Part shown: piece after piece, positions 15,040-49,333 of the stretch | How positions within the stretch are numbered: position 1 is the first letter of the stretch | Layout of the letters: each line of letters opens with the position of its first letter | From: an uncultured archaeon | GTDB taxonomy: Archaea; Aenigmatarchaeota; Aenigmatarchaeia; Aenigmatarchaeales; Aenigmatarchaeaceae | Assembly: GCA_964347265.1 (NCBI GenBank) | Contig: CAYFXV010000004.1 | Coordinates: forward strand, 1 to 49,808 | Direction: 5' to 3' | DNA: 49,808 bases | Program-made: the position numbers and the translations under genes | The notes under the pieces: generated by a model | The model's input: only the letters and a program-made list of their open reading frames with translations | Told to the model about the DNA's origin: nothing | Databases searched by the model: none

Positions 15040-15149
15040 AGCCCCGTAGTGTAGCGGCCAAGCACACAGGGCTTTGGTCATAAGACTAAAGCATTGAGCT
15101 TTGCTATGAAAGAAACCCTGTAACGCAGGTTCGAATCCTGCCGGGGCTA
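15040..15149 (+). tRNA. tRNA-Gln(TTG) with 37-nt intron (15078-15114) at 37/38
   Basis: A1-U72 acceptor AGCCCCG/CGGGGCT; CAGGG/CCCTG stem; BHB helix CTTT/AAAG and outer CATA/TATG. Confidence 0.93.
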
Positions 15150-15190
15150 TTCTTTTAAATAATTCTAAATAATGTTACTATTGTGATAAA

Positions 15191-15565
15191 ATGGCTGAAA
15201 GAACATTAGGGGTTACTATAATTGCAATTTTGGGTATTATAGGTGCAATTATAATGGTTATTGGCGGAATAATTTTGCTGTTTGTAGGAGCAGCCCTAGT
15301 AGCATTTCTCGGACCATTCGGTGCATTAGGAATCATTGGAGGTATAGTAGTCTTAATAGTTGGAATAATTCAGTTTTTAATTAGTTATGGATTATTTAAA
15401 ATGAAAAAGTGGGCACTATACGTAGAATTAATACTCTTGATAATAGGGATTGTAGGCAGTATAATAATGATGGCATATATCGGTGATTTAACACAAATAA
15501 TAATCATAATAATATACGCAATTATCTTTTACTACCTATACACCAAGAGAACTTTGTTTTCCTGA
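15191..15565 (+). CDS. Membrane protein of unknown function (about 4 TM)
   Basis: RTLGVTIIAIL...ISYGLFKMKKWA; hydrophobic throughout. Confidence 0.75.
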   Translation: MAERTLGVTIIAILGIIGAIIMVIGGIILLFVGAALVAFLGPFGALGIIGGIVVLIVGIIQFLISYGLFKMKKWALYVELILLIIGIVGSIIMMAYIGDLTQIIIIIIYAIIFYYLYTKRTLFS

Positions 15566-15649
15566 TACCCCATTTTTTTTATTTTTCATATTTAAACCAA
15601 AAGATTTTTAAAGTCTTATTTCTAAATATGCAAATACTCGGTGATAATT

Positions 15650-16072
15650 ATGGGAATGTTTAGTGGAAGAGAACTAAAAAAGAGAAAGAAAAAATACAAG
15701 TGGAAAAAAACGAAATATAAAGTCAGGACACTCCAACTAAAAAAGAAAAAAGATCCATTAGAAGGAGCTCCTCAAGCAAAAGGTATTGTTATTAAGAAAT
15801 ATGGAATAGAACAAAAGCAGCCCCATTCAGGTATAATAAAGGTTGTTAGAGTTCAATTGTTAAAAAACAAAAAAGAAATAACAGTTTTTGTTCCTAAATC
15901 TGGTGGAATAGGTTTTATTAATGAGCATGATGAGGTTGTTGTTGAAGGTGTTGGAGGTTCTCAGGGAGGTCCTGTTGGTTCTCAGCATGGTTTAAGATGG
16001 AAAGTTGTTAAAGTTAATAAAATTCCTTTATCAGAACTCTTAAGAGGAAAGGTTAAAAAAGAGGTTAGATAA
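15650..16072 (+). CDS. rps12: 30S ribosomal protein S12 (uS12), divergent
   Basis: DPLEGAPQAKGIV, VRVQLLKN, INEHDEV; GGTGA SD before ATG 15650; first gene of str cluster. Confidence 0.93.
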   Translation: MGMFSGRELKKRKKKYKWKKTKYKVRTLQLKKKKDPLEGAPQAKGIVIKKYGIEQKQPHSGIIKVVRVQLLKNKKEITVFVPKSGGIGFINEHDEVVVEGVGGSQGGPVGSQHGLRWKVVKVNKIPLSELLRGKVKKEVR

Positions 16073-16671
16073 TGTCTTTAAAAATTTTTGATAAATGGGA
16101 AGTAGAAAATATCGATGTTAATGATAATGGTCTAAAAAATTATATAAATTTAAAACCTCTTATAGTCCCTAAAACATTTGGGAGATTTGCAGCAAAGCAA
16201 TTTCATAAAAGTCAAATGAATATAGTAGAAAGACTTGCAAATCATCTTTTTGTTACAGGTCATAGAGGTAAAAAACATCTTATTACAAGTGGGAGAAATG
16301 TTGGAAAAACCTTTAAAGTTTGGAAAATAATTAAAGACACATTTGATATTCTTGAAAAAAATGCAAATAAAAACCCTATAGAAGTTTTTGTTAGAGCTGT
16401 GGAGAATGCTGCTTTGAGAGAAGAGATAACTTCTTTCCAAGTTGGTGGTATAATTGTTAGAAAAGCTGTTATAACTTCACCACAAAGAAGAGTTGATATT
16501 GCTTTAAGATTAATAACACAAGGGGCATATCAAAAGGCTTTTGCTAATCCTAAAAAAATGGCCGAATGCTTAGCTGATGAAATATTTGCTGCTTATAATA
16601 GTGATTCTTCAAAATCTTATGCTGTAAAAGAAAAAGAGAGAAAGGAAAGAGAAGCTGGTGGAGCAAGATAG
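16072..16671 (+). CDS. rps7: 30S ribosomal protein S7 (uS7)
   Basis: NIVERLAN, NPIEVFVRAVENAALREE, SPQRRVDIALR, AECLADEI. Confidence 0.96.
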   Translation: MSLKIFDKWEVENIDVNDNGLKNYINLKPLIVPKTFGRFAAKQFHKSQMNIVERLANHLFVTGHRGKKHLITSGRNVGKTFKVWKIIKDTFDILEKNANKNPIEVFVRAVENAALREEITSFQVGGIIVRKAVITSPQRRVDIALRLITQGAYQKAFANPKKMAECLADEIFAAYNSDSSKSYAVKEKERKEREAGGAR

Positions 16672-16716
16672 TTAGGTTATTTTCATATAAGTTAGTTTTT
16701 CTAAAATTCCAAAACA

Positions 16717-16724
16717 TTTAAATA
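16717..16724 (+). promoter_or_regulatory. TATA box upstream of EF-2 gene
   Basis: AAAACA-TTTAAATA in the rps7-fusA intergenic region. Confidence 0.5.
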
Positions 16725-16757
16725 TGAATACCTCTTATTATTTCAAGTTGTGGTATT

Positions 16758-18947
16758 ATGGCAAAGGAAGAATATAGTGAAAAAGTACAAGAATTGATGA
16801 ATAATCCAAAGAATATCAGAAATATTGGTATTGTTTCTCATATTCATCATGGTAAAACTACTCTAACCGATAACTTAGCTGCTGCAGCAGGATTGATGGC
16901 TAGAGATTTAGTTGGAGAAAGAATGTTAACATGGATTGATGATCAAGAAAGAGAAAGATTAATGACAATTTATGGTGCAACAGTTACAATGTCTCATGAT
17001 TATGGGGGTGAAAGATACTTAATAAATCTTTTAGACACACCAGGACATGTTGATTTTGGTGCTGATGTTACTCAAGCTATGAGAGCTGTAGACGGAGCTG
17101 TAGTTCTTTGCTGTGCAGTTGAGGGTGTAATGCCACAAACAGAAACTGTTTTAAGACAAGCAATAGCAGAAAGAGTTAAACCTGTTTTATTTATTAATAA
17201 AGTTGACAGAGCAATAAGAGAACTAAAATTAACATCTGAACAATTGCAAAAAAGACTAGCAAAAATTGTTGTTGATGTTAATAAGTTTATTCAAAGACAT
17301 GTTGAAAAACAATATGCTAAAGATTGGGTAGTAAAAGTTGAAGATGGTTCTGTTGCATTTGGTTCAGCTTTGAAAAAATGGGCAATTTCTGTTCCTTTCA
17401 TGGAAAGGACAGGAGTAACATTTAAAGATATAATTGATTTATGCTCTCAAGAAAAAAATGAGGAATTAGCAGACAAAGCTCCAATGCATATTGTTGTTTT
17501 AGATATGGTTATTAAACACTTGCCAAATCCTCTAGAGGCTCAAGCTTACAGAATAGAAAGAATTTGGGAGGGTGATGTTAACTCAGAAATCGGTAAACAA
17601 TTAGTTAACTGCGATCCAAATGGAAAATTAGCTGCAGTTATAACTAAAATTACTTCTGATCCGCATGCTGGCATGATATCAACTTCAAGAATTTTTTCTG
17701 GTAAATTAACTAAAGGACAGAATATACATTTTGTTGATACTGGAAGAACTGCAAAAACTCAACAAGTTACAACATTTATTGCTTTAAGAAGGATACCAGT
17801 TGAGTATGCGCTTGCAGGAAATGTTGTTGGTATAGTTGGTTTATCAGAAGCTGCTGTTGGTCAAACAATAACTGAACCAGATTTTTCATTAGAAACTTTT
17901 AAAGCTATAAAACATATTTTTGAGCCAGTTGTTACAAAATCAATTGAACCTAAACATCCACAAGATTTACCCAAATTAATAGAAATCCTTAAAACATTAA
18001 GTAGAGAAGATACTACATTAAAAGTTAAAATAAATCCAGAAACTGGAGAAACTTTAGTTTCGGGTTTAGGTGAACTACATTTAGATGCAAAAGTTGAAAG
18101 GAAAATTAAAGAAAAAGGAATAGAAATTATAGCTTCGCCACCCATTGTTGTTTATAGGGAAAGTATTTTTTCCAATTCTCCTGTTATAGAAGGAAAATCT
18201 CCAAACAAACATAATAAATTTTATATTTCTGTTGAACCTCTTCCAAAAGAGATTTACAAAGTAATGACAGAAGGAGAAATAAGAGATGGAGAAATAAAAG
18301 GAAAGAATCTGGAATTAAGAAAGAGATTACAGGAATTAGGAATGAGTAAATCAGATGCAAAAGATTTAATTTTAATTCATAATCACTGTATGTTTTTAGA
18401 CTGTACAAAAGGTATTCAATATTTAAATGAAGCTATGGAAAATATAAAGGCTGCATTTATAAAAGTTATGGATGGAGGCCCTTTAGCACAAGAACCTTGT
18501 GCAGCTGTTATTGTTAGGTTGCATGATGCTGAATTGCATGAAGATGCTGTTCACAGAGGACCAGCACAGATTATGCCATCCATTCGTCGTCCAATTAATC
18601 AAGGCATGTTAAAAGCAGGTACTAGTTTTCTAGAACCCAGACAAATAATCAGGATAGATACTCCACAGGATTATATAGGAAATGTGACTGCTGAAGTTGG
18701 GAACAGGAGAGGAGAAATTCTAAATGTTGAACAAGAAGAATACACAGCAATTGTTACAGCCAAAGTTCCTGTTGCTGAAATGTTTGGTTTTGAAGGTGCT
18801 TTGAAGTCTGCTACAGGCGGTAAAGGCTTTCAATCTTTAATGGATGTTATGTTCGAGAAAATACCAAATGACCTAAGAGACCAGGTTGCTTTAAAAATTA
18901 GAGAAAGAAAAGGAATGCCTAAAGAAATTCCTAAATCTGAAATCTAA
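16758..18947 (+). CDS. fusA: Elongation factor aEF-2
   Basis: [34 protein letters not shown], diphthamide motif [11 protein letters not shown]. Confidence 0.96.
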
Positions 18948-18997
18948 ATCATAAACCTTTAAATAATTATATTTTTAATAAGCTAAAAGGTGATTTT

Positions 18998-20287
18998 ATG
19001 GCAGAAAAACCACACTTGAACTTAGTGACTATTGGTCACGTAGATCATGGAAAATCTACTTTAATTGGTAGAATGCTATATGATACTGGTAATTTAAGAG
19101 AAGAAGATTTAAGAAAACTAAAAGAATTAGCAAAAGAATTAAAAAAAGAAACCTTTGAGTTTGCTTTTGTAATGGATAAATTAAAAGAAGAAAGAGAAAG
19201 AGGAGTTACAATAGATGTAATGCACAAGAGATTTGATACAGCAAAATATTATTTCACAGTTATTGACGCACCAGGTCACAGAGACTTTGTTAAAAACATG
19301 ATAACAGGTGCTTCTCAAGCAGATGCTGCCTTGTTAGTTGTTTCAGCAAAGCAAGGAGAATTTGAGGCAGGTGTTGGAGCAACTGGGCAAACAAGAGAGC
19401 ACGTGTTCTTAATAAAGGTTTTAGGTGTAAAACAAATCGTAGTTGCAGTAAACAAAATGGATACTGTTGATTACAACCAAGAAAGATACAATAAAGTTAA
19501 AGAGGAAACAGAAAAACTTTTGAGAACTGTTGGTTATGATACAAGCAAAATGTTATTTGTTCCAACTTCAGCTTGGGAAGGATATAATGTTGCAAAAAAA
19601 CCAGAAAAAGCAACATGGTATAAGGGACCAACATTATATGAAGCGCTTGATACATTTATTGTACCAGAAAAACCAGTTGAAAAACCTTTAAGACTTCCAA
19701 TTCAAGATGTTTATACAATAACTGGAATTGGAACAGTTCCTGTTGGAAGAGTAGAAACAGGTGTTTTGAAAACAGGAGACAATTTAATATTTATGCCAGG
19801 TGGTGTAAAAGGCGAGGTAAAATCAATAGAGATGCACCATGAACAAATTCCAGAAGCAAAGCCAGGAGACAATGTTGGCTTCAGTGTTAGAGGTATAAGC
19901 AAGGCTGATGTAAAAAGAGGAGATGTTGCAGGTTTAGAATCAAATCCTCCAACAGTTGCAAAAGAATTTACAGCACAAATAATTGTATTACATCATCCAA
20001 ATGTTGTAACAAAGGGTTACACTCCAGTATTTCATTGTCACACAGCACAAGTAGCATGTAAAATAACAGAAATACCAAAGAAAATTGATCCAAAAACAGG
20101 AGCAGTAATTAAAGAAAATCCAGATTTTATAAAGACAGGAGATGCGGCAATTATAAAATGTGTCCCAAGTAAACCAATGGTTATTGAAAATTCAAAAGAT
20201 TTTCCAGAGTTGGCAAGATTCGCAATTAGAGATATGGGTCAAACGGTTGCTGCAGGAGTTTGCTTAGAAGTTACTCCTGCCAAATAA
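18998..20287 (+). CDS. tuf: Elongation factor aEF-1alpha
   Basis: [49 protein letters not shown]. Confidence 0.98.
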
Positions 20288-20329
20288 TTTTTTCTTTCTT
20301 AACTTCTTCTTTATTTTTTTCTTTTTAGT
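20288..20329 (+). terminator. T-rich archaeal terminator-like tract after tuf
   Basis: Repeated oligo-T runs directly after the stop codon. Confidence 0.5.
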
Positions 20330-20396
20330 AAATTATTTAAAAACATACTTGAAACACCAAGTAATATATAAATTGAAAATTCTAAATTCTAAGTGT

Positions 20397-20489
20397 ATGA
20401 ATTGGAAAGAATTTTGGATTGGATTTATAGTTGGATTTATAATTTGTCTAGGATTTGGTATATTTATTCTAGCATATTATAGTGGGTGA
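20397..20489 (+). CDS. 30-aa single-TM peptide, not in ORF track
   Basis: MNWKEFWIGFIVGFIICLGFGIFILAYYSG; its 3' end carries the GGTGA SD of the next gene. Confidence 0.6.
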   Translation: MNWKEFWIGFIVGFIICLGFGIFILAYYSG

Positions 20490-20495
20490 TGAAAA

Positions 20496-20846
20496 GTGAA
20501 AGATTTTATCAAAGGTTTTGTAATAGGTTTAGCTTTTGCTTGCTTAATAATTTTTTTATTAATTAGATTTTCTTATGAATATCATATGTCTAGGATATTT
20601 GCAAGTATACCTTCAGAAGAAAGGGCAAAAGTTAAATATTGTAGTATATTATTGAGAACTCGAAATGGTTGTAATATCCTCTATAATGTTTCAACTAATT
20701 CTATTTTTATAGAAGATTTTGATGCTAATAGAAATGGAGAATTAGATGATAAAGACACATTATTTGAATTATGTAAAAATTATTATGGTGCAATTAGTGA
20801 TTGTGAATGTAAAAAAGTTTGTGGTTGTGATATTCAGTGTGATTAA
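20496..20846 (+). CDS. Membrane-anchored Cys-rich protein with EF-hand/dockerin-like loop
   Basis: N-terminal TM; DANRNGELDDKD; Cys-rich tail. Confidence 0.7.
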   Translation: MKDFIKGFVIGLAFACLIIFLLIRFSYEYHMSRIFASIPSEERAKVKYCSILLRTRNGCNILYNVSTNSIFIEDFDANRNGELDDKDTLFELCKNYYGAISDCECKKVCGCDIQCD

Positions 20847-20956
20847 ATGACTTTTAAACAAGTCATGAATAGGCTATTTCTAAAAATCCGACTTAAAACA
20901 TATATGCTTATGTTTTAAGTAAATTATTTAAATACTTTAACAAATACATAGTGAAT

Positions 20957-21277
20957 ATGCAAAAAGCAAGAATAAAACTAATGAGTGCAGATCCCAAGAA
21001 ACTAGATGAGGTTTGTAATGAATTAAAAACAATAACTGATAGATTTGGCGTAGCCATGCGTGGGCCTATACCATTACCAACAAAAAAATTAAAAGTTGTT
21101 ACAATGAAAACTCCTTGTGGAGATGGAACAGGTCATGGAAATGCTACTTGGGATAGATGGGAAATGAGGATTCATAAAAGAGTTATTGATGTTTCTGCTG
21201 ATGAGAGAACATTAAGACAAATAATGAGAATAACTATTCCTGATGGAGTTTCTATAGGTATTCAATTAAGAGATTAA
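20957..21277 (+). CDS. rps10: 30S ribosomal protein S10 (uS10)
   Basis: [33 protein letters not shown]. Confidence 0.97.
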
Positions 21278-21342
21278 TTATTTTCTAGATATTTAATGGA
21301 ATTTTTTTAAATATAAAAACTCTTTTAATAAATATTCTTTAT

Positions 21343-21426
21343 GCCGAGATCGCATAACATGGTAGTGCGCTAGCTTGGAGAGCTAGTGGTCGAAAGGCCA
21401 TGGGGGTTCAAATCCCTCTCTCGGCG
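21343..21426 (+). tRNA. tRNA-Ser(GGA), intronless
   Basis: GCCGAGA/TCTCGGC acceptor, CTAGC-TT-GGA-GA-GCTAG, long variable arm, G73; position after rps10. Confidence 0.96.
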
Positions 21427-21470
21427 CAATTTATTTATTTTAATTAATAATAATCTATTAGGTGAAAAAG

Positions 21471-21512
21471 ATGTGTGGTTGCGGATCAAAGAAGAAAAAG
21501 AAGAAAAAATAA
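21471..21512 (+). CDS. Candidate 13-aa micropeptide MCGCGSKKKKKKK
   Basis: AGGTGA SD 5 nt before ATG; mixed AAG/AAA Lys codons. Confidence 0.4.
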   Translation: MCGCGSKKKKKKK

Positions 21513-21542
21513 CTTTAAATAATTCTTTTTCTCATCTTTCTT

Positions 21543-22007
21543 ATGTTTGAGAAAACAGCAATGGTAATTGTAGCTAATACTTTACCTTCTTTAGAACAAA
21601 TAGGTGGGATAGCATTAGGAATAGCTCTAGGCTTAGATCCAATTTATACATTATTGATATCATTATTAGTTAATTGTCTTTTATTTTTTCCAGTATTTTT
21701 TGGATTAAAATTATTTTACAAAAGTTTTTTATCGAAAATAAGAATTTTTAATAAATATATACAAAGAGTCAGGAGAATAGGCAAACCATATATTGACAAA
21801 TATGGGATTATTGGCCTAACCCTATTTATTTCATTGCCAACACCTTTAACAGGAACATATACAGCTTCTATTTTAAGTTGGTTCCTAGATTTAGATTGGA
21901 AAAGGTCTTTTATTGCTATAGCAATAGGTTCTACTATAGGCGGTATAATTATTTTACTAAGTTCTGTTGGTTTTTTAAACATTTTGAAGCTATTTTTTAA
22001 TATTTGA
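21543..22007 (+). CDS. COG2426 small multidrug-export-like membrane protein
   Basis: LPSLEQIGGIALG, KYGIIGLTLFISLPTPLTGTYTASI. Confidence 0.85.
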   Translation: MFEKTAMVIVANTLPSLEQIGGIALGIALGLDPIYTLLISLLVNCLLFFPVFFGLKLFYKSFLSKIRIFNKYIQRVRRIGKPYIDKYGIIGLTLFISLPTPLTGTYTASILSWFLDLDWKRSFIAIAIGSTIGGIIILLSSVGFLNILKLFFNI

Positions 22008-22097
22008 TACAAAAAATAGAAAAATTTAAATATCTAACTTTCTATAGATTACATAGATTATAACATAGCTTATAAACTATCGGTTTCGAGTGATAAA

Positions 22098-22598
22098 ATG
22101 AGCTTATTAAAAGGAATCAGAAGCACTGTTTCATCCATATATCCCATTTTTAATGGTAAACCCGAGAGTTATTTAGTATGCTCTCTTAGTCTTAGGGGTG
22201 AAACTATAAATGTTCTTGGAAATCACAATCCAAAAACAATTGACCCTGGAAAAAATTATGAAATTTCTGTAGAAAAGACAGATTACGATAGACTAAGAGG
22301 ACTTCTAGGAATGGGAGGACTCACAAGTGTTTTAAGTTCAGAAAGAAAAATTAGAGATTGTAATGGTACAATGTGTTTTAGTGTAAGTGGTTTTGAATAT
22401 CGAGAATTAGCAAAATTTGAAAAATTTTTAAATGAGAAAAACGGTAAAAAAGAGCAAAAATCTGGTCCTCCAACACCAATCTATAAAAATGGAGGATGGA
22501 GACCACCTAAAGAGATGAGAAATGCATGGAATTATGTTGCTAGAAAGAGAAAGAATTTTCCAAGATTTGGAACTGGCAAAAAATTTGAAAACGCTTAA
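22098..22598 (+). CDS. Hypothetical protein
   Basis: 166-aa ORF with GAGTGA SD; no family recognised. Confidence 0.6.
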   Translation: MSLLKGIRSTVSSIYPIFNGKPESYLVCSLSLRGETINVLGNHNPKTIDPGKNYEISVEKTDYDRLRGLLGMGGLTSVLSSERKIRDCNGTMCFSVSGFEYRELAKFEKFLNEKNGKKEQKSGPPTPIYKNGGWRPPKEMRNAWNYVARKRKNFPRFGTGKKFENA

Positions 22599-22700
22599 AT
22601 ACTTTCTTAAATATATTTAATTCTGGAAAGTTTTCACGAAAAAGCGTGTTCTGAGAAGATTTAAATAGGTTTAAAATTTCATATTATAAAATGTGATTTA

Positions 22701-23651
22701 ATGCCACAAAGAAAAAGACCTGGTAGAGGAAGCAAAGCATTTTACCCTAGAAAAAGGGCTAGACGTATTTATCCTCGGATAAAATCATGGCCTAAGTCCA
22801 AAGAAGTAAAACTTTTGGGATTTGCTGGATATAAGGCTGGGATGTCACATGTTATATTAATTGATAATAATCCAAACTCAACAACAAGGGGCCAACAGAT
22901 AACAAGACCAATAACAATCCTTGATTGCCCTCCTCTTTCTGTTTTTGGTTTTAGATGCTATATAAACAATAAATCTTCTTCTGATGTTTTTTCTGAAAAA
23001 ATAGATAAAAATTTATCAAGAAAAATAAAGGTTCCTAAAAAACCAAAAAACCTTGAAGAACAATTATCAAAAATACCAAAAAATGTTTCTAAAATAAATT
23101 TAATTTGTCGTACAAATCCTAATTTTAAGAAAAAACCTGAAATTTTTGAGATTGCTTTAGGAGGTTTTGTAGAAGAACAGCTAAAATATGCTAAAGAAGT
23201 TTTAGGAAAAGAAATAAAAGCCTCTGATGTATTTAAAGAAGGGGATTTGGTTGATGTTGTTGCTGTAACAAAAGGAAAAGGTTTTGAAGGTCCAGTTAAA
23301 AGATTTGGTGTAAGAACTCATTGGAGAAAAGCTCAACAAATGCAAAGACATGTTGCTCCATTAGGTCAGAATGAACCAGGAAAAGTTAGATGGACAATTC
23401 CTCAAGCAGGTCAAACAGGTTTTCAAACAAGAAATGAATTAAATAAAAGAATTTTAAAAATTTCTGATGGTTTTAATGTTAAGGGTGGGTTTGTAAATTA
23501 TGGTAATGTTTCTGGAGATTGTGTTTTATTAGAAGGTTCTGTACCCGGTCCTAAAAAAAGATTAATAAGATTAAGATTTGCTATAAGGCCAAAGAAAGTA
23601 TATCCAGTTGATATCAAATACACTTCTACAGAGAGTAAGCAAGGTGTATAA
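22701..23651 (+). CDS. rpl3: 50S ribosomal protein L3 (uL3)
   Basis: RPGRGSKAFYPRKRA, FAGYKAGMSH, TKGKGFEGPVKRFG, LEGSVPGPKKRLIRLR. Confidence 0.97.
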   Translation: MPQRKRPGRGSKAFYPRKRARRIYPRIKSWPKSKEVKLLGFAGYKAGMSHVILIDNNPNSTTRGQQITRPITILDCPPLSVFGFRCYINNKSSSDVFSEKIDKNLSRKIKVPKKPKNLEEQLSKIPKNVSKINLICRTNPNFKKKPEIFEIALGGFVEEQLKYAKEVLGKEIKASDVFKEGDLVDVVAVTKGKGFEGPVKRFGVRTHWRKAQQMQRHVAPLGQNEPGKVRWTIPQAGQTGFQTRNELNKRILKISDGFNVKGGFVNYGNVSGDCVLLEGSVPGPKKRLIRLRFAIRPKKVYPVDIKYTSTESKQGV

Positions 23652-23652
23652 A

Positions 23653-40930: not shown

Positions 40931-41018
40931 TTTTTCTAAATTTTAAAAAACATGAAAAACTTTATAAGCTCATAAAATCATCTTATAAGAGGCGTTTACT
41001 ATACCTAGAGGGTAAAAA

Positions 41019-42215: not shown

Positions 42216-42219
42216 TCTA

Positions 42220-42453
42220 ATGATGAGCCTTGCATCAAGATTATTAGTTTTAATTTTAGCATCTCTTACACTTCTTATAGGTTTTCTTGTAACATTCTCT
42301 TTAATGTCAGGTAAATTGTCGCCTTCTCAATTATTCACTAAAATTGAAATATCTACAGATCTATATTTGTTATTTGGAACTCTTTTAATAATAGGAATCT
42401 TAATTTTTGGGTTTCTTTTATCTTTAAAACAACATATTTTTAAACCTACGTAA
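42220..42453 (+). CDS. Small 2-TM membrane protein
   Basis: Two hydrophobic helices; ATG 42220 lies just after the mat stop. Confidence 0.6.
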   Translation: MMSLASRLLVLILASLTLLIGFLVTFSLMSGKLSPSQLFTKIEISTDLYLLFGTLLIIGILIFGFLLSLKQHIFKPT

Positions 42454-42507
42454 TTTTGTAGTGCGTTTTAGGTTAAATATTTAAAATTTGACTTCTATTT
42501 TTACTTT

Positions 42508-42795
42508 ATGGAAGAAAAAATTGAGTTAAATGTGTTCTTAAATAAGCTCGTATCATCTTTTGCCAAAAAATTTGAAAAATTAGAAAAAGATATAAAAGGA
42601 TTAAAATCAGATATTGAAAATTTTAAACAGTCTAAAGACAAAAATTCTCTAAAAGAAATTGAGGATAAGTTGAGAAAGTTAGAGATTTCAGTAAATTCTA
42701 TAAAAAACAAAAGTCAAATAGATAAATCAATTTTAAAATTGATTGAAAGCGAAGAACAGGAAAGAAAGAGTGAAGAATATGGAAGAAGATTTTGA
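42508..42795 (+). CDS. Coiled-coil hypothetical protein
   Basis: Heptad-like K/E/L pattern; overlaps next gene. Confidence 0.6.
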   Translation: MEEKIELNVFLNKLVSSFAKKFEKLEKDIKGLKSDIENFKQSKDKNSLKEIEDKLRKLEISVNSIKNKSQIDKSILKLIESEEQERKSEEYGRRF

Positions 42796-43141
42796 GTCTT
42801 TCATGAAGTCACAATTAAGAACACTAAAAAATCAAATGAAGATAATAAAAGATTACATTAATAGATACGAAGAGAGAAGCTTTAGACTTAGAAGAACTAT
42901 AACAAACGAACTCATAGATGCATTAATAAAGAGATTTGAAAGAAATGAGGAACTTATACAAGAATTAAATGAGAGACTAGAGTCTCTAAGTCTTAAACTC
43001 CATGAAAATTTGTCTCAATCTGTTAAAGAATTAAGAGAAGAAATAAGTGAAGCCGAGTTATCTAAAGCTATCTCAAAAATATTTGAAGAAAAAAAGATAA
43101 AGGTAAGTTCAAAGGCTTTAGAGGAATTGAAAAAGATTTAG
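42779..43141 (+). CDS. Coiled-coil hypothetical protein
   Basis: GAGTGA SD before ATG 42779; long heptad pattern. Confidence 0.65.
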   Translation: MEEDFESFMKSQLRTLKNQMKIIKDYINRYEERSFRLRRTITNELIDALIKRFERNEELIQELNERLESLSLKLHENLSQSVKELREEISEAELSKAISKIFEEKKIKVSSKALEELKKI

Positions 43142-43153
43142 TTATCTAAAATA

Positions 43154-45175
43154 CTAAGTTTTTTCTTCACTCTCGAAATCTTCTTCGCTATAAACATATT
43201 CAATTTCTTCTTCATCCTTAGTTTTTCTCCTTCCTCTGATTTTAATTCTCTTAAGAATGAAAATTAATACAACTATAACAATTACAATTATAAAAACAAT
43301 TACAATAAATGACATGTCAAAACCAAGTGCTGTTACTTCAACAGCATATTCATCAGATATTGACCATTCATTGCTAGTATCATTTGCATAAATTTTCCAA
43401 GCAACTATAGATCCAACACTTGAATTCAAAATTTTTGTAATATTAATCCATCCACTTTTTCCTGTTAAAGGAACCCAAGAATCATTTTCCCATACACCTG
43501 AATTATTTGAAGAAAAAATATAACCAGATAATCCAAAATCATCAGACCAATCTAATAGAAACATTACTTCTGATCCTGCAATGTCTGTATTAATTGAACC
43601 TTCAAAAAGAGATGGTGGCATATTTTGAATTGGACCAGTTATTAACATATCTAAATTTTCACTAACAACTATAGTTATTCCATCACTTGTGTTTCCACTA
43701 ACGCTTATTGTTATGCTATAAATTTTTGGTTCAGCATTAGAAGGTATATTGAAATTTATTTTTACTTCTTTTGTTACTCCACCATAAATAGATGAAGGTT
43801 GAGTTATGCTATACCATTCTGGAGGAACTCCTGCTAAGTCTATTTTTATATCAAAAATATTTTTTAACATATCATTTACTAGATTAAAACTTGCTTCTCC
43901 ACCCTCTCCCACTTCTACTGATGGAAAATTAATATTTTTTATTTTAAGTTCCCTAATTATTTCTTCATCCTCTGGTGGAGCTGAAGAAACAGTTATAGTT
44001 TTTATTATGCTTTGATTTGTATAATTTGCTGTTCCGCTTGTATTGCAAGTGAAATTGTATTTTCCAACACTTAATAAGAATATGTCCATTCTTGTTGAAG
44101 AACTTATATTTTCTATTAAATCAGAATTTTTGTAAAATTTAAATTTGGAAGCCGGAACTTGTATCGAATTAATAGAATAACAGGACGCTGTTATTTGTGT
44201 ACCTTCTCTAATGTTTGTAGATGGTAATACATCCATAACTAATGGATTCATTTTTAATACTTCATAATTAATAAAATTTGTAGAACTTTCATCATCTGAA
44301 CCATCTTTTGCGTGCCATTTATAAGAAAATTTTCTTGGTTTTAAATCCTTTAGAATTATCCAAAAAACCCCAGATGAATTTTGAACAGATGTATTTGATG
44401 TTGAATAATAATTTTTCATTTTTCCTGTATGATTTGATTCAAACCACACATCAACTAAATCTGCATCTTCACAATTTATTTGAAATTTATATTCAGTATT
44501 AGGAACATAACCAAATCTGGTACGTGGTGATGTTTCTTCATTTGAAAATTTTGGTGGCCCCATATCAAAATAATAAGTTATAGATGAAGAAGTATAATTT
44601 TCATCACCACTCCAAGAAGCTGTTACTGTAAATATGCCTGAAGATGTTAAATTTACTGAATATTCTATTATGGAAATATTATATTGTGTACTAAAGTCAG
44701 GATGTGTTGACTCAAGTTTTATTAGTTTGCCAGGTATATTCAATTTAGCAACAAAATCTGCTATTTCATTTAACTCAAAATTGTTACTTCCTTCTATTCC
44801 ATCTAATGTTAAAGTTATCGCTGTTGACGAGTTTATTATAATACTATAAGTATCAGAAAAGGTTAAAATATCACTTGTATTGTTAACTATCCATCTATAA
44901 GAATAATCACCAACCCCTAAATCTATTAAATCAATCCAATATACGCTACCACTATTTTGAACTGCAGGCGTTGTGTATTGTGTGTAATTATTACTATTCC
45001 ACTCAAAAATTACATCAGCGATATTATTTATGTCATCACAATTTATATGAAAACTATAGCTTCTTCCTGGTACGTATTGGGAACCTGAAGGAATGGAAGT
45101 GGTTAGTTCAACAGCTCCCACAATAGAGGGGAGAAGTAAAAATAGAAAAATGGAGCTAAAAAAATATTTTTTCAT
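43154..45175 (-). CDS. Cell-surface (glyco)protein with signal peptide, repeated Ig-like modules and C-terminal TM anchor
   Basis: Sec signal MKKYFFSSIFLFLLLPSIVGA; two similar modules; many N-x-S/T sequons; TM followed by basic/acidic tail. Confidence 0.82.
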   Translation of the reverse strand: MKKYFFSSIFLFLLLPSIVGAVELTTSIPSGSQYVPGRSYSFHINCDDINNIADVIFEWNSNNYTQYTTPAVQNSGSVYWIDLIDLGVGDYSYRWIVNNTSDILTFSDTYSIIINSSTAITLTLDGIEGSNNFELNEIADFVAKLNIPGKLIKLESTHPDFSTQYNISIIEYSVNLTSSGIFTVTASWSGDENYTSSSITYYFDMGPPKFSNEETSPRTRFGYVPNTEYKFQINCEDADLVDVWFESNHTGKMKNYYSTSNTSVQNSSGVFWIILKDLKPRKFSYKWHAKDGSDDESSTNFINYEVLKMNPLVMDVLPSTNIREGTQITASCYSINSIQVPASKFKFYKNSDLIENISSSTRMDIFLLSVGKYNFTCNTSGTANYTNQSIIKTITVSSAPPEDEEIIRELKIKNINFPSVEVGEGGEASFNLVNDMLKNIFDIKIDLAGVPPEWYSITQPSSIYGGVTKEVKINFNIPSNAEPKIYSITISVSGNTSDGITIVVSENLDMLITGPIQNMPPSLFEGSINTDIAGSEVMFLLDWSDDFGLSGYIFSSNNSGVWENDSWVPLTGKSGWINITKILNSSVGSIVAWKIYANDTSNEWSISDEYAVEVTALGFDMSFIVIVFIIVIVIVVLIFILKRIKIRGRRKTKDEEEIEYVYSEEDFESEEKT

Positions 45176-45248
45176 ATATTATATATGTCTATATAAGAAA
45201 TTATTTTGTTTTATAAATCAGAAAACTTAATTAAAATAAGGTGAAAAA

Positions 45249-45434
45249 ATGGTAGCTAGAAGAAGAAAAACAAGAAGAAAGACAAAAAGAAAGAAAAAAG
45301 CTTTCGGTGGTTATAGAATACATCCAGATGAACACTTAGAAAAGATAGTTGGTAAGAAACCAATAACACCATCTGAAATGACTAAAAAAATATGGTCACA
45401 TATTAGAAGAAAGAAGCTTGGAAAGAAAAAATAA
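45249..45434 (+). CDS. Small basic protein with SWIB/MDM2-like domain
   Basis: AGGTGA SD; Arg/Lys tail then HPDEHLEKIVGKKPITPSEMTKKIWSHIRRKKL. Confidence 0.75.
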   Translation: MVARRRKTRRKTKRKKKAFGGYRIHPDEHLEKIVGKKPITPSEMTKKIWSHIRRKKLGKKK

Positions 45435-45504
45435 TATAATTTTCCATAAAAGAATTTAGTAATTTCTTTAAGATTTAAAAATATCCAATTCTTAATCTAA
45501 ATAT

Positions 45505-45695
45505 GCCGTCGTGGCAGAACCAGGTAAATGCGCCAGAATCGTCTCAAGTTTTGATTTTGAGATGATAGCGATACTTGAGACAGATGATATTATGGCTTGA
45601 CTCTGAAATGCGGCGTAATGAAGAGTAAAAAGTAAAGTGATGTCGAGTTATCTGGTGCCCGAAAGGGCTTGCAGGTTCAAATCCTGCCGACGGCG
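45505..45695 (+). tRNA. tRNA-Ser(TGA) with two introns: 45537-45572 (30/31, 36 nt) and 45580-45649 (37/38, 70 nt)
   Basis: GCCGTCG/CGACGGC acceptor, G73, long variable arm GCCC-GAAA-GGGC; removing both introns restores CCAGA-CT-TGA-GA-TCTGG. Confidence 0.85.
45580..45649 (+). ncRNA. Putative box C/D guide sRNA encoded in tRNA-Ser intron 2
   Basis: ACA/TGT terminal stem; C ATGATAT 45584-90; 12 nt; D' CTGA 45603-06; C' ATGAAGA 45618-24; 12 nt; D GTGA 45637-40. Confidence 0.7.
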
Positions 45696-45728
45696 CTTCT
45701 TTTTAAGTGGGAAATCAAATAAAATTAT

Positions 45729-46079
45729 ATGGTAATGTTAGCACAGATTATCCCATTTTCAATATACGGAATCATTCCTATTGTTATTCAAATTTTATTC
45801 AGTACTATAACAGCTTGGTTAAGTGCGCAACTTGTAATAGGCGGTGCAAGATTACAGAATGCACTTATATATGCTTTAATAACTTACTTTGTCGTTTATT
45901 TAGTGGTATTAGTTCCCATACCAGCTATTCCTGTTATCAATACTATAGTCCTTGTTGAAGCACTACTAAAAATCTTCGTTGCCATGAAATTTTTTAATAC
46001 AGACTTTCGTGGAGGATTATCTATAGCAGGAGTTCAGATACTTCTTGGAACTATAATTAGTATACCCTTTTATTTTTAA
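45729..46079 (+). CDS. Membrane protein of unknown function (about 4 TM)
   Basis: Hydrophobic ORF downstream of tRNA-Ser. Confidence 0.7.
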   Translation: MVMLAQIIPFSIYGIIPIVIQILFSTITAWLSAQLVIGGARLQNALIYALITYFVVYLVVLVPIPAIPVINTIVLVEALLKIFVAMKFFNTDFRGGLSIAGVQILLGTIISIPFYF

Positions 46080-46124
46080 GACTCCATTTTTTATCATAAG
46101 AAGTTAAAGTTATTAAAGGATAAA

Positions 46125-46361
46125 ATGTTAAAAATAGTAGAATCTAAATCAAACTTCGACACCATATTTGAAGGAATAATTTTAACTCTATCAACCATAT
46201 TTATTTTTCTTGGTTTTGGTGGTCTAATAATAGTTATAACAACACACAGATATCGATCAGATGTATTGTTAGAATATGCATATGCTTTTGTTTATTCCTA
46301 CATGTTAGCTTTAGGAATCATTCTGTTGTTATACCGCAAGAAAATATTAGTTAAAAGATGA
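46125..46361 (+). CDS. Small 2-TM membrane protein (paralog of next gene)
   Basis: Shares LGxxG, SD, YML.LG..L..YRK.I.VK pattern with 46362-46604. Confidence 0.7.
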   Translation: MLKIVESKSNFDTIFEGIILTLSTIFIFLGFGGLIIVITTHRYRSDVLLEYAYAFVYSYMLALGIILLLYRKKILVKR

Positions 46362-46604
46362 TTGTTAATGGATTTTTTTAGCCCTGCAAGCTCAAAATTA
46401 GAGGATGTACTTGAATGGACTTTTCTTTGGTCAGGAATTGTTTTCTTAATTTTAGGTCTCGTAGGAATAATGCTTATGTTATCAGGATATAAAATAGTCT
46501 CAGATCGAGTACTTCAATTTGCTTTCATTTTCGTTAGTTTTTATATGTTGTTTCTTGGTTTATTTTTAATATTTTATCGTAAAACAATAGTAGTAAAATC
46601 CTAA
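46362..46604 (+). CDS. Small 2-TM membrane protein (tandem paralog)
   Basis: Same pattern as 46125-46361. Confidence 0.7.
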   Translation: MLMDFFSPASSKLEDVLEWTFLWSGIVFLILGLVGIMLMLSGYKIVSDRVLQFAFIFVSFYMLFLGLFLIFYRKTIVVKS

Positions 46605-46671
46605 TTCAAGAATAAATTTAACAAAGTTAATCTTTATAAACATTAATCTTTATAATGAAAAAAGTGGTTTT

Positions 46672-47241
46672 ATGGGAATGAGAAGACCTAAAAATATAGA
46701 CAAAACCAAAGAGATTAAAGAAGAAAAGTCTAAAAAGAAAAAGGTTTTAAAGAAAAAGAAAGTTTTAGAAGGCATTAGAGGAATTGTCAGAATTGGAGAG
46801 GTTGATGTAGAGGGAGATAAAAAAATAAGAGTTGCTTTATTAAAAGTTAGGGGTGTTGGGAAATCTTTAGCAAAGATATTTGCTATTGCTGCTGGTTTAA
46901 GCCCTGAAGCATTAATAGGAAGTTTAAATGATGAACAATTAAAGAAATTAGAAGATGTTATAAGAAATCCAGTAAACTATGATATTCCTTATCATATGTT
47001 CAATAGGAGAAATGATCCTCAAACAGGTGAACATAAACACCTAATAGGTTCTGAATTAAGATTTGCTATTAAATCTGATGTTGATTTAATGAGAAAAATT
47101 AGGTGCTACAAAGGAATAAGACACGAATCTGGATTACCTGTTAGAGGCCAAAGAACAAGATCTAGTTTTAGAAAAGGTGCAATTGTTGGCGTTATAAAGA
47201 AAAAGGCAGCAAGATCCAAAGCTAGAAAAGAATCTAAGTGA
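46672..47241 (+). CDS. rps13: 30S ribosomal protein S13 (uS13) with basic N-terminal extension
   Basis: IVRIGEVDVEG, VRGVGKSLA, CYKGIRHESGLPVRGQRTRS; TTTATAAA at 46633. Confidence 0.96.
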   Translation: MGMRRPKNIDKTKEIKEEKSKKKKVLKKKKVLEGIRGIVRIGEVDVEGDKKIRVALLKVRGVGKSLAKIFAIAAGLSPEALIGSLNDEQLKKLEDVIRNPVNYDIPYHMFNRRNDPQTGEHKHLIGSELRFAIKSDVDLMRKIRCYKGIRHESGLPVRGQRTRSSFRKGAIVGVIKKKAARSKARKESK

Positions 47242-47245
47242 TTAA

Positions 47246-47479
47246 ATGAATAAAAAAGAAATTCAAGATAAACTCGAAGAGCTTTCTGAAGATGAGATAA
47301 ACGAAGTTTTTAAAATATTGGGCACAATTCTAGTCACAGATGTTAGCAAAGATAGAAAAATAAGCATATTAATTTCAGAGATAACAGAAGATGAAGATGA
47401 CCTTGCTGGAATTTATATTGAAGATTTAGAAAATGCTATAAAAAGTGTTAAAAATGAAAAGACAAAAGAAAAAATTTGA
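47246..47479 (+). CDS. Acidic hypothetical protein inserted between rps13 and rps4
   Basis: 77-aa ORF with D/E-rich core; overlaps rps4 start by 26 nt. Confidence 0.65.
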   Translation: MNKKEIQDKLEELSEDEINEVFKILGTILVTDVSKDRKISILISEITEDEDDLAGIYIEDLENAIKSVKNEKTKEKI

Positions 47480-47927
47480 ACGACCAAAAAGACCATGGGA
47501 TAAGACAAGAATAGAAGAAGAAAAAAAGTTAATACAAAACTATGGTCTAAGGAGAAAAAAGGAAATTTGGAGAGCAGAATCTATTCTAAGAAACTATAGG
47601 AGGCTAGCAAGAGACCTTGCAGCTAAAAGAGATAAAGAAAAGGAAAAAATATTATTAGATAAACTTTTTAGAATGGGTTTAGTAAAAAAAGATGCAGATT
47701 TAGATGATGTCTTAGCTTTAACAGTAGAAAATATCTTAGATAGAAGATTGCAAACTTTGGTTTTTAAAAAAGGTTTAGCGCAAACTGTTAAACAGGCAAG
47801 ACAACACATTGTTCATGGTCATATAGCCTTTTATGGTAGAAAAACCAGATGGCCGAGTACTTTAGTTCCTTTGGGAGGAGAAGGAAAAATAAATTTTTAT
47901 GAAAAAAGTAAAATAAAAAAGGTGTAA
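47454..47927 (+). CDS. rps4: 30S ribosomal protein S4 (uS4)
   Basis: [39 protein letters not shown]. Confidence 0.96.
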
Positions 47928-47931
47928 GATC

Positions 47932-48333
47932 TTGAAAAAAGAAAGAAAAGAATTGAAATGGGGAATAGCATATATTTTTAGCTCTTCAAATAACACAATA
48001 ATTCATGTTACTGACATTACAGGCGCTGAAACCATATCTAGAATTTCAGCAGGTATGATGACAGATAAGGATAGAGAAGGTGGTTCTCCTTATCCTGCTT
48101 TATTAGCTGCAACAAAAGCTGCTGAAATTGCGTTGGAGAAAGGAATAACAGCAGTTCATATAAGAGTGAGGGCTCCAGGTGGTATAAGATCAAAAAATCC
48201 AGGAGCAGGTGCACAACCAGCTATTAGAGCTTTGGCAAGAACTGGTTTAAGAATAGGAAGAATAGAAGATCTAACACCAATTGGTCATGGAAAAATGAGA
48301 CCCAAAGGTGGCAGAAGGGGAAGAAGAATATGA
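47932..48333 (+). CDS. rps11: 30S ribosomal protein S11 (uS11)
   Basis: [42 protein letters not shown]. Confidence 0.97.
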
Positions 48334-48382
48334 ACCGAAAATTTAATAAACATCTATAACTACTCTTTACTAAGGTGGTTTT

Positions 48383-49165
48383 TTGAAAATCCAAATATTA
48401 GAAAAAACTGACACTGAAATAAAATTTTTACTAGAGGATTCTAATTTTCAATTCGCAAATACTTTAAGAAGAATAATGATGTCTGAAATACCTATTTTAG
48501 CTATAACTTATGTTGATTTTTCTCTAAATAATTCTGTCCTTTACAATGAAATAATAGCTCATAGATTAGGTTTAATACCATTAGTTTTTAATCCAAAAGA
48601 CTTTCACTTCAAAGAAGAGCATGAAAAAGGAAAAACTTGTTCTATGTGCGAGGTCGTTTTCGCAATAAACAAAAAAGGTCCTGGAATGATATACTCTAAG
48701 GATATGAAATCAAGCAACCCAGAAGTAAAACCCATGTATGATAATATTCCAATTGTAGAACTTTTTGATGATCAAAGATTAAAATTGGAGGCTTCTGCTT
48801 CTTTAGGTTTAGGACTAAAACATGCTAGATATCAGGCAGCAAATGCTTTTTACAGATTTTATCCTTCAGTTAAGATTAGTGGAAAAATAAATAATATAGA
48901 TGAGGTTATTAAATCATGCCCAAAAAATGCTTTTAAATTTGAAAATAATAAGTTTTCTGTTAGTTTAGATTGTGATTTATGTAAAGAATGTTTAAAAGTT
49001 GCTAGACCCAAAGGAAGTTTAGAAATTATTGGAGATAATACAAAGTTTATATTTAATATTGAGTCAATTTCTGGATTAAAACCAGAAGACATTGTTTTGA
49101 GCGCTGTTGATATACTTAAAGAGAAGGTTAAAGACCTTAATAAACAAGTAAAGAAGATTAAATAA
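48383..49165 (+). CDS. rpoD: RNA polymerase subunit D (Rpo3)
   Basis: FANTLRRIMMSEIP, EIIAHRLGLIPL, HARYQ, Cys cluster CDLCKEC, IESISGL. Confidence 0.96.
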   Translation: MKIQILEKTDTEIKFLLEDSNFQFANTLRRIMMSEIPILAITYVDFSLNNSVLYNEIIAHRLGLIPLVFNPKDFHFKEEHEKGKTCSMCEVVFAINKKGPGMIYSKDMKSSNPEVKPMYDNIPIVELFDDQRLKLEASASLGLGLKHARYQAANAFYRFYPSVKISGKINNIDEVIKSCPKNAFKFENNKFSVSLDCDLCKECLKVARPKGSLEIIGDNTKFIFNIESISGLKPEDIVLSAVDILKEKVKDLNKQVKKIK

Positions 49166-49200
49166 ATATTTATAAACTTACTTCTATATTTTTTAATCAC

Positions 49201-49333
49201 GCGGAGGTAGCCAAGTCTGGTCTAAGGCGCAGGACTTAAGATCGGACTCTTAAGTTTTGATGCAAGTAAATCTTGCTATGATAAGAAATCCTGTGGGTTA
49301 GTCCCTTCGTCGGTTCAAATCCGGCCCTCCGCA
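49201..49333 (+). tRNA. tRNA-Leu(TAA) with 47-nt intron (49241-49287) at 37/38
   Basis: GCGGAGG/CCTCCGC acceptor, A73, long variable arm, CAGGA/TCCTG stem, BHB helix CTTA/TAAG. Confidence 0.93.

Follow-up and report, generated by a model that had tools for sequence, protein, structure and literature searches.

Short introns in three archaeal tRNA genes carry candidate single-box-pair guides in register with wobble U34

Three tRNA genes in a 49,808-nucleotide (nt) stretch of DNA from an uncultured archaeon (contig CAYFXV010000004.1 of assembly GCA_964347265.1; hereafter the window) contain short introns that share one layout, built around a sequence antisense to the anticodon loop of the same gene and set in register with its wobble nucleotide, U34. 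The genes are those of tRNA-Gln(UUG), tRNA-Ser(UGA) and tRNA-Leu(UAA), and in all three of these mini-introns the antisense element is followed, at a distance of 2 nt, by UUGA, which resembles a box D', then by a spacer of 7-17 nt and by AUGA(U/A)A(A/G), which resembles a box C'. In our opinion the mini-introns probably encode guides with a single kink-turn (K-turn) of the D'/C' type, that is, half-mers of box C/D guide RNAs, which would direct 2'-O-methylation of U34 (Um34) on the precursor tRNA (pre-tRNA). This reading is drawn from sequence comparison; that proteins bind, that U34 is methylated, that the guide works in cis and in which order these steps occur are our inferences beyond the layout itself. 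The genes and the parts of their mini-introns are located as follows.

15040-15149 (+): tRNA-Gln(UUG) gene, Rfam tRNA match of 55.2 bits with a 40-nt insertion in the anticodon loop
15040-15077 (+): Gln exon 1 (C32 = 15072, U34 = 15074, G37 = 15077); exon 2 starts at 15115
15078-15114 (+): Gln intron, 37 nt, at the canonical 37/38 site
15084-15093 (+): guide-like element of Gln, GACUAAAGCA, antisense to the anticodon loop; U34 pairs with its fifth position counted back from the box
15094-15097 (+): Gln D'-like box UUGA
15106-15112 (+): Gln C'-like box AUGAAAG, 8 nt after UUGA
45505-45696 (+): tRNA-Ser(UGA) gene with two introns; anticodon loop CUUGAGA at 45574-45580, U34 = 45576
45537-45572 (+): Ser mini-intron, 36 nt, at the non-canonical 30/31 site
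45541-45550 (+): Ser guide-like element GUCUCAAGUU, position 5 upstream of the box opposite U34
45551-45554 (+): Ser D'-like box UUGA
45562-45568 (+): Ser C'-like box AUGAUAG, 7 nt after UUGA
49201-49333 (+): tRNA-Leu(UAA) gene (C32 = 49235, U34 = 49237, G37 = 49240), exon 2 from 49288; Rfam match of 46.5 bits with a 50-nt insertion in the anticodon loop
49241-49287 (+): Leu intron, 47 nt, at the canonical 37/38 site
49247-49256 (+): Leu guide-like element CUCUUAAGUU, position 5 upstream of the box opposite U34
49257-49260 (+): Leu D'-like box UUGA
49261-49277 (+): Leu spacer, 17 nt, with the hairpin GCAAG/CUUGC as C-stem of the proposed K-turn
49278-49284 (+): Leu C'-like box AUGAUAA, its last 3 nt overlapping the splicing strand UAAG

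When positions are counted upstream from the D'-like box, C32 is paired with position 3 in all three introns, U33 with position 4 and U34 with position 5, the last in agreement with the N+5 rule of C/D guides. The antisense helices comprise 9-10 bp, with GACUAAAGCA pairing with G31-G37 and nt 1-2 of the Gln intron (9 bp, one G·U), GUCUCAAGUU with A31-G37 and the first 2 nt of the second Ser intron, and CUCUUAAGUU with G30-G37 and nt 1 of the Leu intron. The 3' strand of the bulge-helix-bulge (BHB) splicing motif (AAAG in Gln, UAAG in Leu) is a separate segment downstream of the antisense element. A scan for this motif returned a strict hBHBh' at 15077/15115 for Gln (four central pairs, outer helix 6, inner helix 4), and Leu has one at 49240/49288 (four central pairs, outer helix 7, inner helix 3), while the Ser mini-intron forms three of the four central pairs and the large intron of the same gene forms CUUG x CGAG. 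The C-type and D-type boxes of a K-turn or K-loop (AUGANNN and NUGA) are present in all three mini-introns, the fold being predicted from them.

The probability of such a layout was estimated from 2,000,000 composition-preserving shuffles per intron, searched for six in-register pairs to nt 32-37 with no more than one G·U, then UGA at the right offset and AUGA 3-25 nt downstream. The full in-register layout appeared in 143 (Gln), 59 (Ser) and 206 (Leu) shuffles per 2,000,000, i.e., at 3e-5 to 1e-4 per intron, which excludes chance for its occurrence in three of three introns. The loose pattern, consisting of a 7-mer inverted repeat with N(U/C)GA and AUGA, occurs in unrelated DNA with a frequency of about one per 7-8 kb and strand pair; the improbable part is the register on the gene's own anticodon, not the loose pattern. 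The element is present in 3/3 tRNAs with U34 and in 0/3 others, namely the two intron-less tRNAs of the window, Arg(CCU) and Ser(GGA), and an intron-less tRNA-Pro(GGG) on the same contig (Fisher p = 0.05). These results bear out several statements of an initial annotation of this DNA, which had described the layout with an antisense element separate from the BHB-forming segment, had placed U34 opposite position 5 in all three cases (now seen in an in-register scan), had suggested a comparison with shuffled introns, where the layout indeed stands far above chance, and had called tRNA-Arg(CCU) and tRNA-Ser(GGA) intron-less, as default ARAGORN and Rfam also do. Its assignment of the element to all U34 tRNAs holds for the three in the window and fails as a general statement, given the Ala-UGC intron of a relative (L012), which is without the motif.

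The conservation of the layout could be followed in relatives, whose loci are designated by L-numbers. For Leu, the gene downstream of rpoD was aligned, anchored on the motifs, from 18 species-level genomes with S11 identities to the window of 69-94% (the window, L001-L005, L007-L012, L014, L016, L022, L023, L025 and L026). The register of position 5 on U34 is invariant in 18/18 Leu, 4/4 Ser and 5/5 complete Gln homologues, as the initial annotation had expected of homologues; the covariation of guide and anticodon that it also proposed to look for is not seen in the Leu alignment, where the guide helix is invariant. The Leu hexamer is CUUAAG in 17 genomes and UUUAAG in the remaining one, and it always ends exactly 2 nt before the box, which reads UUGA in 14 cases, CUGA in two, UCGA in one and CAGA in one, with GA in 18/18. 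AUGA follows 6-20 nt downstream of the box in all 18 genomes, and neither the 5' segment (2-11 nt) nor the spacer is constant in length or in sequence. In Ser, the four carriers of the mini-intron (the window, L002, L007 and L010) keep (C/U)CAAG-NN-UUGA-spacer-AUGA(U/C)AG while the hairpin partners change. The Gln intron is invariant in four close relatives (L161, L162, L165 and L166) except for intron nt 5-7, in genes whose exon anticodon and T stems vary and whose neighbouring protein is 61-87% identical. Conservation in Gln is read from close relatives, since the distant homologues of the 124-amino-acid (aa) open reading frame (ORF) downstream of tRNA-Gln (P0006 and P0008) lack an upstream tRNA; when metagenomes were scanned with the threonyl-tRNA synthetase (ThrRS) gene beside tRNA-Gln as anchor, the matches had identities of only 52-57%, with no close relatives and no Gln homologues among them. 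Purifying selection on the combination of antisense element, NUGA and AUGA in the relatives is supported by these sequences. On the other hand, the motif was not found in the Leu introns of two more distant Aenigmatarchaeota (L021 and L038), nor in those of the Nanohaloarchaeota L029 and L034-L037.

The pairing potential between the two boxes fits the expectation for a K-turn, with G·A and A·G, a variable 3b·3n and a Watson-Crick 4b:4n pair. The first position of the D'-like box and the sixth of the C'-like box form a Watson-Crick pair in 17/18 Leu introns, U-A in 15 and C-G in L012 and L026, where the G at position 6 also serves the BHB helix. The second and fifth positions, respectively, are mostly U·U, with C-G in L007 (UCGA/AUGAGAU). 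In the guide, position 2 pairs with nt 31 in 17 of the 18 genomes, U-A again being replaced by C-G in L012 and L026. The spacer forms a hairpin in eight genomes, with compensatory variants (GCAAG/CUUGC, GCGAG/CUCGU, GCAGG/CCUGC and GCAGAA/UUCUGC), and is a 6-11-nt, mostly A-rich loop in the others; K-turn and K-loop alternatives are likewise known for the internal C'/D' motifs of archaea. Covariation statistics for the Leu alignment are weak, with an invariant guide helix and two compensatory pairs in the spacer hairpin. BHB pairing alone is insufficient to explain the conservation of AUGA, because AUGA stays constant while its partners in the splicing fold vary.

Nucleotides 32-35 are required by the guide helix as well as by the BHB, and the C'-like box also takes part in the BHB fold. 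In Gln (AAAG, 15109-15112) and many Leu introns the box ends in the bases of the BHB 3' strand, inner helix h' arises by pairing of its UGA or GAUA with the intron's variable 5' end, and in Ser the box sits in an 11-bp inner helix. Since both folds draw on the anticodon loop, the C'-like box and a portion of the guide, the guide fold and the splicing fold are mutually exclusive, and the fixed AUGA with changing partners indicates a constraint on the box itself. In Leu the guide fold is the minimum-free-energy structure (-18.0 kcal/mol versus -12.3 kcal/mol for the BHB-constrained fold), and in Gln the two are nearly isoenergetic (-16.0 kcal/mol for the guide fold versus -17.1 kcal/mol for the BHB fold). 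The excised Gln and Ser introns fold as hairpins, the guide being paired there with a sense copy of the anticodon loop that the intron itself contains; with the guide so engaged, the real anticodon loop would be free for the BHB. From these modelled structures we infer a two-state RNA, with one fold competent for methylation and the other for splicing. Regarding the substrate, the complementarity often runs past G37 into the intron (nt 1-2 in Gln and in the Leu genes of L008, L025 and L012, nt 1-4 in L016, nt 1 in L023) and does not reach A38/N39 of the spliced tRNA, which makes the unspliced pre-tRNA, in cis or in trans, the likely target.

In the mechanism that we propose, the antisense element would pair with the anticodon loop of the unspliced pre-tRNA (C32-G37), with nt 30/31 and with the intron's first nucleotides. 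NUGA, next to this helix, and AUGANNN further downstream would fold as a K-turn or K-loop. L7Ae would bind it, and 2'-O-methylation of U34, opposite the fifth position upstream of the D'-like box, would be carried out by a Nop5-fibrillarin unit recruited to this motif. Refolding and splicing would come after methylation, an order suggested by the mutual exclusion of the two folds. A more specific version, which we put forward tentatively and with more doubt than belief, is that natural half-mers in introns of 31-47 nt act in cis, that the site is set by the geometry of the hairpin in place of a second K-turn, and that Um34 is a checkpoint before intron removal.

Several known systems resemble the mini-introns in part. 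Reviews name one established case, a box C/D small RNA (sRNA) for Cm34 and Um39 that resides in the intron of pre-tRNA-Trp in Euryarchaeota (Haloferax, Pyrococcus); it was still the sole functional case cited in a 2024 review. Like the mini-introns, it lies in a BHB intron of its own target, addresses the wobble nucleotide by the N+5 rule and shows competition between the guide and splicing folds. However, the tRNA-Trp intron is long, with full C, D', C' and D boxes and two guides (for 34 and 39), whereas the mini-introns measure 36-47 nt, have one D'/C'-like pair and one guide, and are hosted by Gln, Ser and Leu tRNAs with U34 in a DPANN lineage. Another DPANN archaeon, Nanoarchaeum equitans, has a 66-nt intron in elongator tRNA-Met, a stable RNA that contains a hairpin and a single box of each type (C and D) and whose function has only been proposed; it also has permuted circular C/D sRNAs, and fibrillarin and Nop56 are present. 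The mini-introns share with it a C/D-like RNA in a tRNA intron, reduced boxes and the D-before-C order of some N. equitans sRNAs, but the tRNA is a different one, the intron is longer, and no wobble-registered self-antisense element has been reported in it. The initial annotation had presented the elements as a new system; as intron-hosted C/D guides are already known (tRNA-Trp, and putatively the N. equitans tRNA-Met), they are better seen as a variant than as a new kind, and what is new is the single-box-pair, single-guide form in introns of 36-47 nt. No description of such mini-intron elements was found in full-text literature searches.

The target nucleotide itself has precedents, and these lend plausibility to the proposed chemistry. 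Pyrococcus has trans-acting sRNAs whose predicted targets are the wobble bases of Leu-UAA, Leu-CAA, Met and Trp, and in S. acidocaldarius an sRNA is predicted for U34 of Gln-UUG, where Um34 has been observed, so two of our three targets are known or predicted C/D-guided positions in other archaea. The antisense logic and the nucleotide (34 of Leu-UAA and Gln-UUG) are the same, but those sRNAs are free-standing and bipartite, while the mini-guides are intron-borne half-mers. The mini-guides also resemble engineered hemi or half-mer C/D ribonucleoproteins, which likewise have one K-turn and one guide, assemble with L7Ae, Nop5 and fibrillarin and are catalytically active; half-mer RNAs have been crystallised on Nop5-fibrillarin-L7Ae with target. 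These are, however, laboratory constructs that methylate without site specificity, and a natural half-mer would need other means of fixing the site, e.g., through tethering in cis within a hairpin or through two RNAs that pair on a Nop5 dimer. With the C'/D' K-loop or K-turn of archaea the mini-introns share the order D'-loop-C', the potential for tandem GA/GA, a U before GA in the C' strand, the Watson-Crick 4b:4n pair and a variable loop or stem, although that motif normally accompanies a terminal C/D K-turn in the same RNA and the mini-introns have a single pair.

Genes for L7Ae, Nop5 and fibrillarin were not present in the window or in the loci of relatives that were examined, and motif patterns for fibrillarin and Nop5 as well as tblastn with an approximate M. 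jannaschii fibrillarin query gave no match in 1.3 Mb, consisting of those loci only. Published gene tables of Aenigmarchaeota list Rpl7Ae and adjacent genes for a Nop-domain protein (arCOG01923) and fibrillarin (arCOG00078), a published KO table calls NOP56 in 14 of 20 genomes, and a Nop5-type protein and fibrillarin are used as near-universal single-copy markers of archaea. The window encodes Cbf5, another L7Ae-dependent guide enzyme, and a C/D sRNA of canonical appearance has been retained by this lineage in the large Ser intron, with the same AUGANNN style of box as in the mini-introns.

A number of observations weigh against the mini-introns as methylation guides. The bipartite architecture of C/D sRNAs (C/D and C'/D' with spacers of ~12 nt), seen in the 70-nt Ser intron, is absent from the mini-introns: 12 nt upstream of the guide there is no C-like box, nor is there a D-like box 12 nt downstream of the C'-like one. 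A single motif thus lacks one defining feature of C/D sRNAs, and the main argument against a guide is the loss of specificity in vitro, where an archaeal C/D complex with a single site was active without keeping its site specificity, for which both motifs were required (Hardin and Batey). The boxes are also degenerate, with UUGA in place of CUGA and AUGAUAA in place of RUGAUGA, and L004 has C·U at the otherwise Watson-Crick pair between the boxes. As the guide helix never varies, it yields no covariation signal, and the covariation of the boxes amounts to one or two evolutionary events. Positions 5-7 of the C'-like box double as the BHB strand in several introns, and part of their conservation must have this other cause. 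The element is dispensable in some lineages, since L003, L006 and L009 have no Ser mini-intron and L021 and L038 have no Leu motif. Furthermore, flpA is called in only 6 of the 20 Aenigmarchaeota genomes, with 2 more under K14563, and a search for RNA sequencing runs containing the organism found none, only DNA metagenomes, mostly from marine sediment.

These points have to be weighed together with other explanations of the layout. The elements might be an L7Ae-dependent switch between folding and splicing that works as a timer, quality control or chaperone, without methylation and without fibrillarin. Such a role would agree with guide and BHB folds that are mutually exclusive and close in energy, with Gln and Ser guides for which the intron's own sense copy of the anticodon loop is an alternative partner in a two-state-like manner, and with a single K-turn, sufficient for L7Ae binding and atypical for a specific methylation guide. 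However, a switch needs neither an exact 2-nt distance between helix and box in three unrelated tRNAs and 18 species nor N+5 at the wobble position, and the targeted positions are methylated via C/D guides in other archaea, so that we regard it as unlikely. Alternatively, the element could do without proteins and without K-turn function, as intron hairpins (the BHB inner helix) or as relics of a local duplication affecting the anticodon region. The 11-bp inner helix formed by the Ser guide and C'-like box, the pairing of AAAGC with GCUUU in Gln, and the resemblance of UUGAGAUGAUAG in Ser to the neighbouring CUUGAGACAGAUGAUA, which suggests a duplication, are in line with this, but NUGA is conserved despite its location in unpaired stretches or the loops of hairpins, AUGA stays the same as its partners change (in L007, L010 and the Leu 5' segments), and short-spacer Leu introns that lack such a hairpin keep all the motifs; structure alone is in our view a very improbable cause. 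Chance resemblance in AT-rich introns, for which the frequency of the loose pattern could be cited, has a negligible probability and is already refuted by an in-register layout that, at no more than 1e-4 of shuffles per intron, recurs in 3/3 introns and in 18 species.

A version that builds on the circularised intron considered in the initial annotation differs from a guide on the pre-tRNA in the form of the RNA and in the time of its action: after excision, the intron would act as a circular single-K-turn guide, with a fixed loop of 18-19 nt, in trans on the mature tRNA. Archaeal tRNA introns are circularised, the permuted C/D sRNAs of N. equitans gain the correct box order only as circles, and the D-before-C order of the mini-introns fits such a model. 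The loop lengths calculated for the window (18, 18 and 19 nt) were correct, yet they are not a conserved feature, as the corresponding loop measures 14-26 nt among the Leu homologues, and a circular guide loop of fixed length was rejected for this reason. The non-conserved length indicates no need for circularisation, and D' followed by C' is the normal internal order, for which a circle is unnecessary. Moreover, the complementarity enters intron nt 1-4 (Gln, L008, L012, L016, L023 and L025) instead of A38/N39, and in the hairpins formed by the Gln and Ser introns after excision the guide is buried. We give this version little credence, and circularisation is likely the ordinary fate of the intron.

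Why archaeal tRNA genes retain introns is an old question. If the mini-introns are guides for Um34, then intron-borne self-guides are a recurrent strategy across several tRNAs, wobble modification is tied to the order of splicing, and a single K-turn can suffice in vivo, contrary to the conclusion from in vitro work that specificity needs two motifs. Should the cis-acting half-mer checkpoint also be true, it would explain directly, in terms of function, why a genome-reduced lineage keeps short tRNA introns, and it would represent a minimal natural design for RNA-guided methylation. The elements are small, with ~30 nt of functional RNA, and could be a minimal scaffold for programmable RNA methylation.

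The tRNA-Ser(UGA) gene, with 113 nt between the two strands of its anticodon stem, was missed by Rfam and by default ARAGORN; ARAGORN -i finds the body but miscalls it as Thr-AGU. The presence of two introns follows from its relatives. In L003, L006 and L009, GCGCCAGA/GCUAGC is directly followed by the loop CUUGAG, i.e., exactly the 36-nt mini-intron is missing, whereas the window, L002, L007 and L010 have 35-37 nt extra before the anticodon loop, and the Ser genes of all seven share an intron at 37/38. The initial annotation had recorded only the short intron and overlooked the 70-nt one; the mini-intron exists with the length of 36 nt and the mature sequence that it gave, but one base further to the left, at 45537-45572 and not at 45538-45573. 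Its placement at 30/31 is based on BHB geometry, in which nt 25-28 pair with intron positions -7 to -4 (three of four pairs in the window, four of four in L007) between bulges AG|A and AU|A, with the 11-bp inner helix, and on the first base of exon 2 (N3') in L007, a C that compensates for the G39 of that genome. A position at 31/32 was rejected, as no BHB forms there. Extra introns of 17-18 nt occupy the same 30/31 site in the Leu genes of L001 and L004. The 3' half of the mini-intron, UUUGAGAUGAUAG (UUGAGAUGAUAG, 45555-45568), resembles the adjacent anticodon loop together with the C box of the large intron, CUUGAGACAGAUGAUAU (CUUGAGACAGAUGAUA, 45574-45590), which suggests that the mini-intron arose by local duplication.

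Judging from its boxes, the second Ser intron looks like a full C/D sRNA of the canonical type, with the following parts.

45580-45649 (+): second Ser intron, 70 nt, at the canonical 37/38 site; BHB central helix CUUG x CGAG, by inspection
45584-45590 (+): box C, AUGAUAU
45591-45602 (+): guide, 12 nt
45603-45606 (+): box D', CUGA
45618-45624 (+): box C', AUGAAGA, followed by a 12-nt spacer
45637-45640 (+): box D, GUGA

Its D' guide, AUGGCUUGACU, is invariant in seven genomes (the window, L002, L003, L006, L007, L009 and L010). The predicted target, AGUCAAGCCAU with the methyl group on the fifth base, was not found in the window or in the loci of relatives that were searched, and it may lie in rRNA. 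The large Ser introns of L007, L009 and L010 have AAGA in place of the D box, overlapping the BHB strand.

Other tRNA genes of the relatives also showed unusual introns. Leu(UAA) genes with up to three introns occur in L001 (3251-3428), L002 (~6250-6400), L004 (2801-2973), L010 (7537-7725) and L011 (~3470-3620), one of them in the D-loop, another at the canonical position (the mini-guide intron) and the third at 30/31, where 17-18 nt are inserted with a good BHB. These introns at 30/31 have the recurrent 3' end GCGAUA/GCGUUA, and the Ser mini-intron has the same site and 3' motif. Upstream of S13, L012 has a tRNA (3770-3872) that a manual parse assigns to Ala-UGC; its intron at 33/34 measures 12 nt, and a further insertion is situated near the T arm. 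In the corresponding place, L016 has one (2993-3085) that ARAGORN calls Cys-GCA with a 20-nt intron and that could not be parsed by hand; neither contains the guide and K-turn layout. In two tRNA-Tyr(GUA) genes, L051 7724-7846 (-) and L058 8947-9073 (-), labelled Woesearchaeota and Methanosarcinales, introns of 51-55 nt have box-like pairs CUGA ... AUGA(G/A), e.g., GCUGAGGAUGAAAGC, with no evident wobble-registered antisense element. K-turn-like motifs in tRNA introns may, from these sequences, be more widespread in DPANN.

The window has a G+C content of 30% and contains the archaeal ribosomal-protein, str, spc and alpha operons, Cbf5, S-adenosylmethionine (SAM) synthetase and a type IV pilus-like cluster. 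Its sequence is also part of the 120.9-kb contig WVZI01000065.1 (assembly GCA_011772535.1). Its S11 gene, compared with a species-level genome collection, has Candidatus Aenigmatarchaeota (DPANN) as neighbours, with identities of up to 94%. Rfam, at the gathering threshold and at E <= 1, finds four tRNAs in the window and nothing else, and a strict pattern for further canonical C/D sRNAs found none there, the boxes of this lineage being too degenerate for that pattern. The two intron-less tRNAs, both found by default ARAGORN and Rfam, are located as follows.

4472-4548: tRNA-Arg(CCU), intron-less
21343-21427: tRNA-Ser(GGA), intron-less

Beside tRNA-Gln, the upstream ThrRS gene (13087-14979, -) encodes 630 aa with TGS and SAD domains, its best metagenome matches being 52-57% identical, and the same locus of relative L164 (1339-3078, -) has a ThrRS of 579 aa with an archaeal tRNA-Thr_ED editing domain; it looks like the ThrRS type was replaced in place. 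The pilus- or archaellum-like cluster (4582-10902) includes a KaiC-type ATPase, two T2SSF-type membrane proteins, an archaeal type IV pilin and several ORFs without a Pfam match, and a PIN-ATPase-KH protein is encoded upstream of it at 2280-4115. ORFs without a Pfam match include those of 673 aa (43154-45175, -), which adjoins the two-intron tRNA-Ser gene on its upstream side, 495 aa (8947-10434, +) and 236 aa (7504-8214, +). The M20 peptidase dimerisation domain is matched by two separate ORFs (27-725 and 4119-4430) that flank the HisRS and PIN-ATPase genes and may represent a split or duplicated peptidase gene. About 2 kb past the end of the window, the same contig carries a radical-SAM gene for wyosine formation (Taw1/TYW1-type; L167 13576-14517, -), and its presence implies that this organism invests in hypermodification of the anticodon loop despite a small genome.

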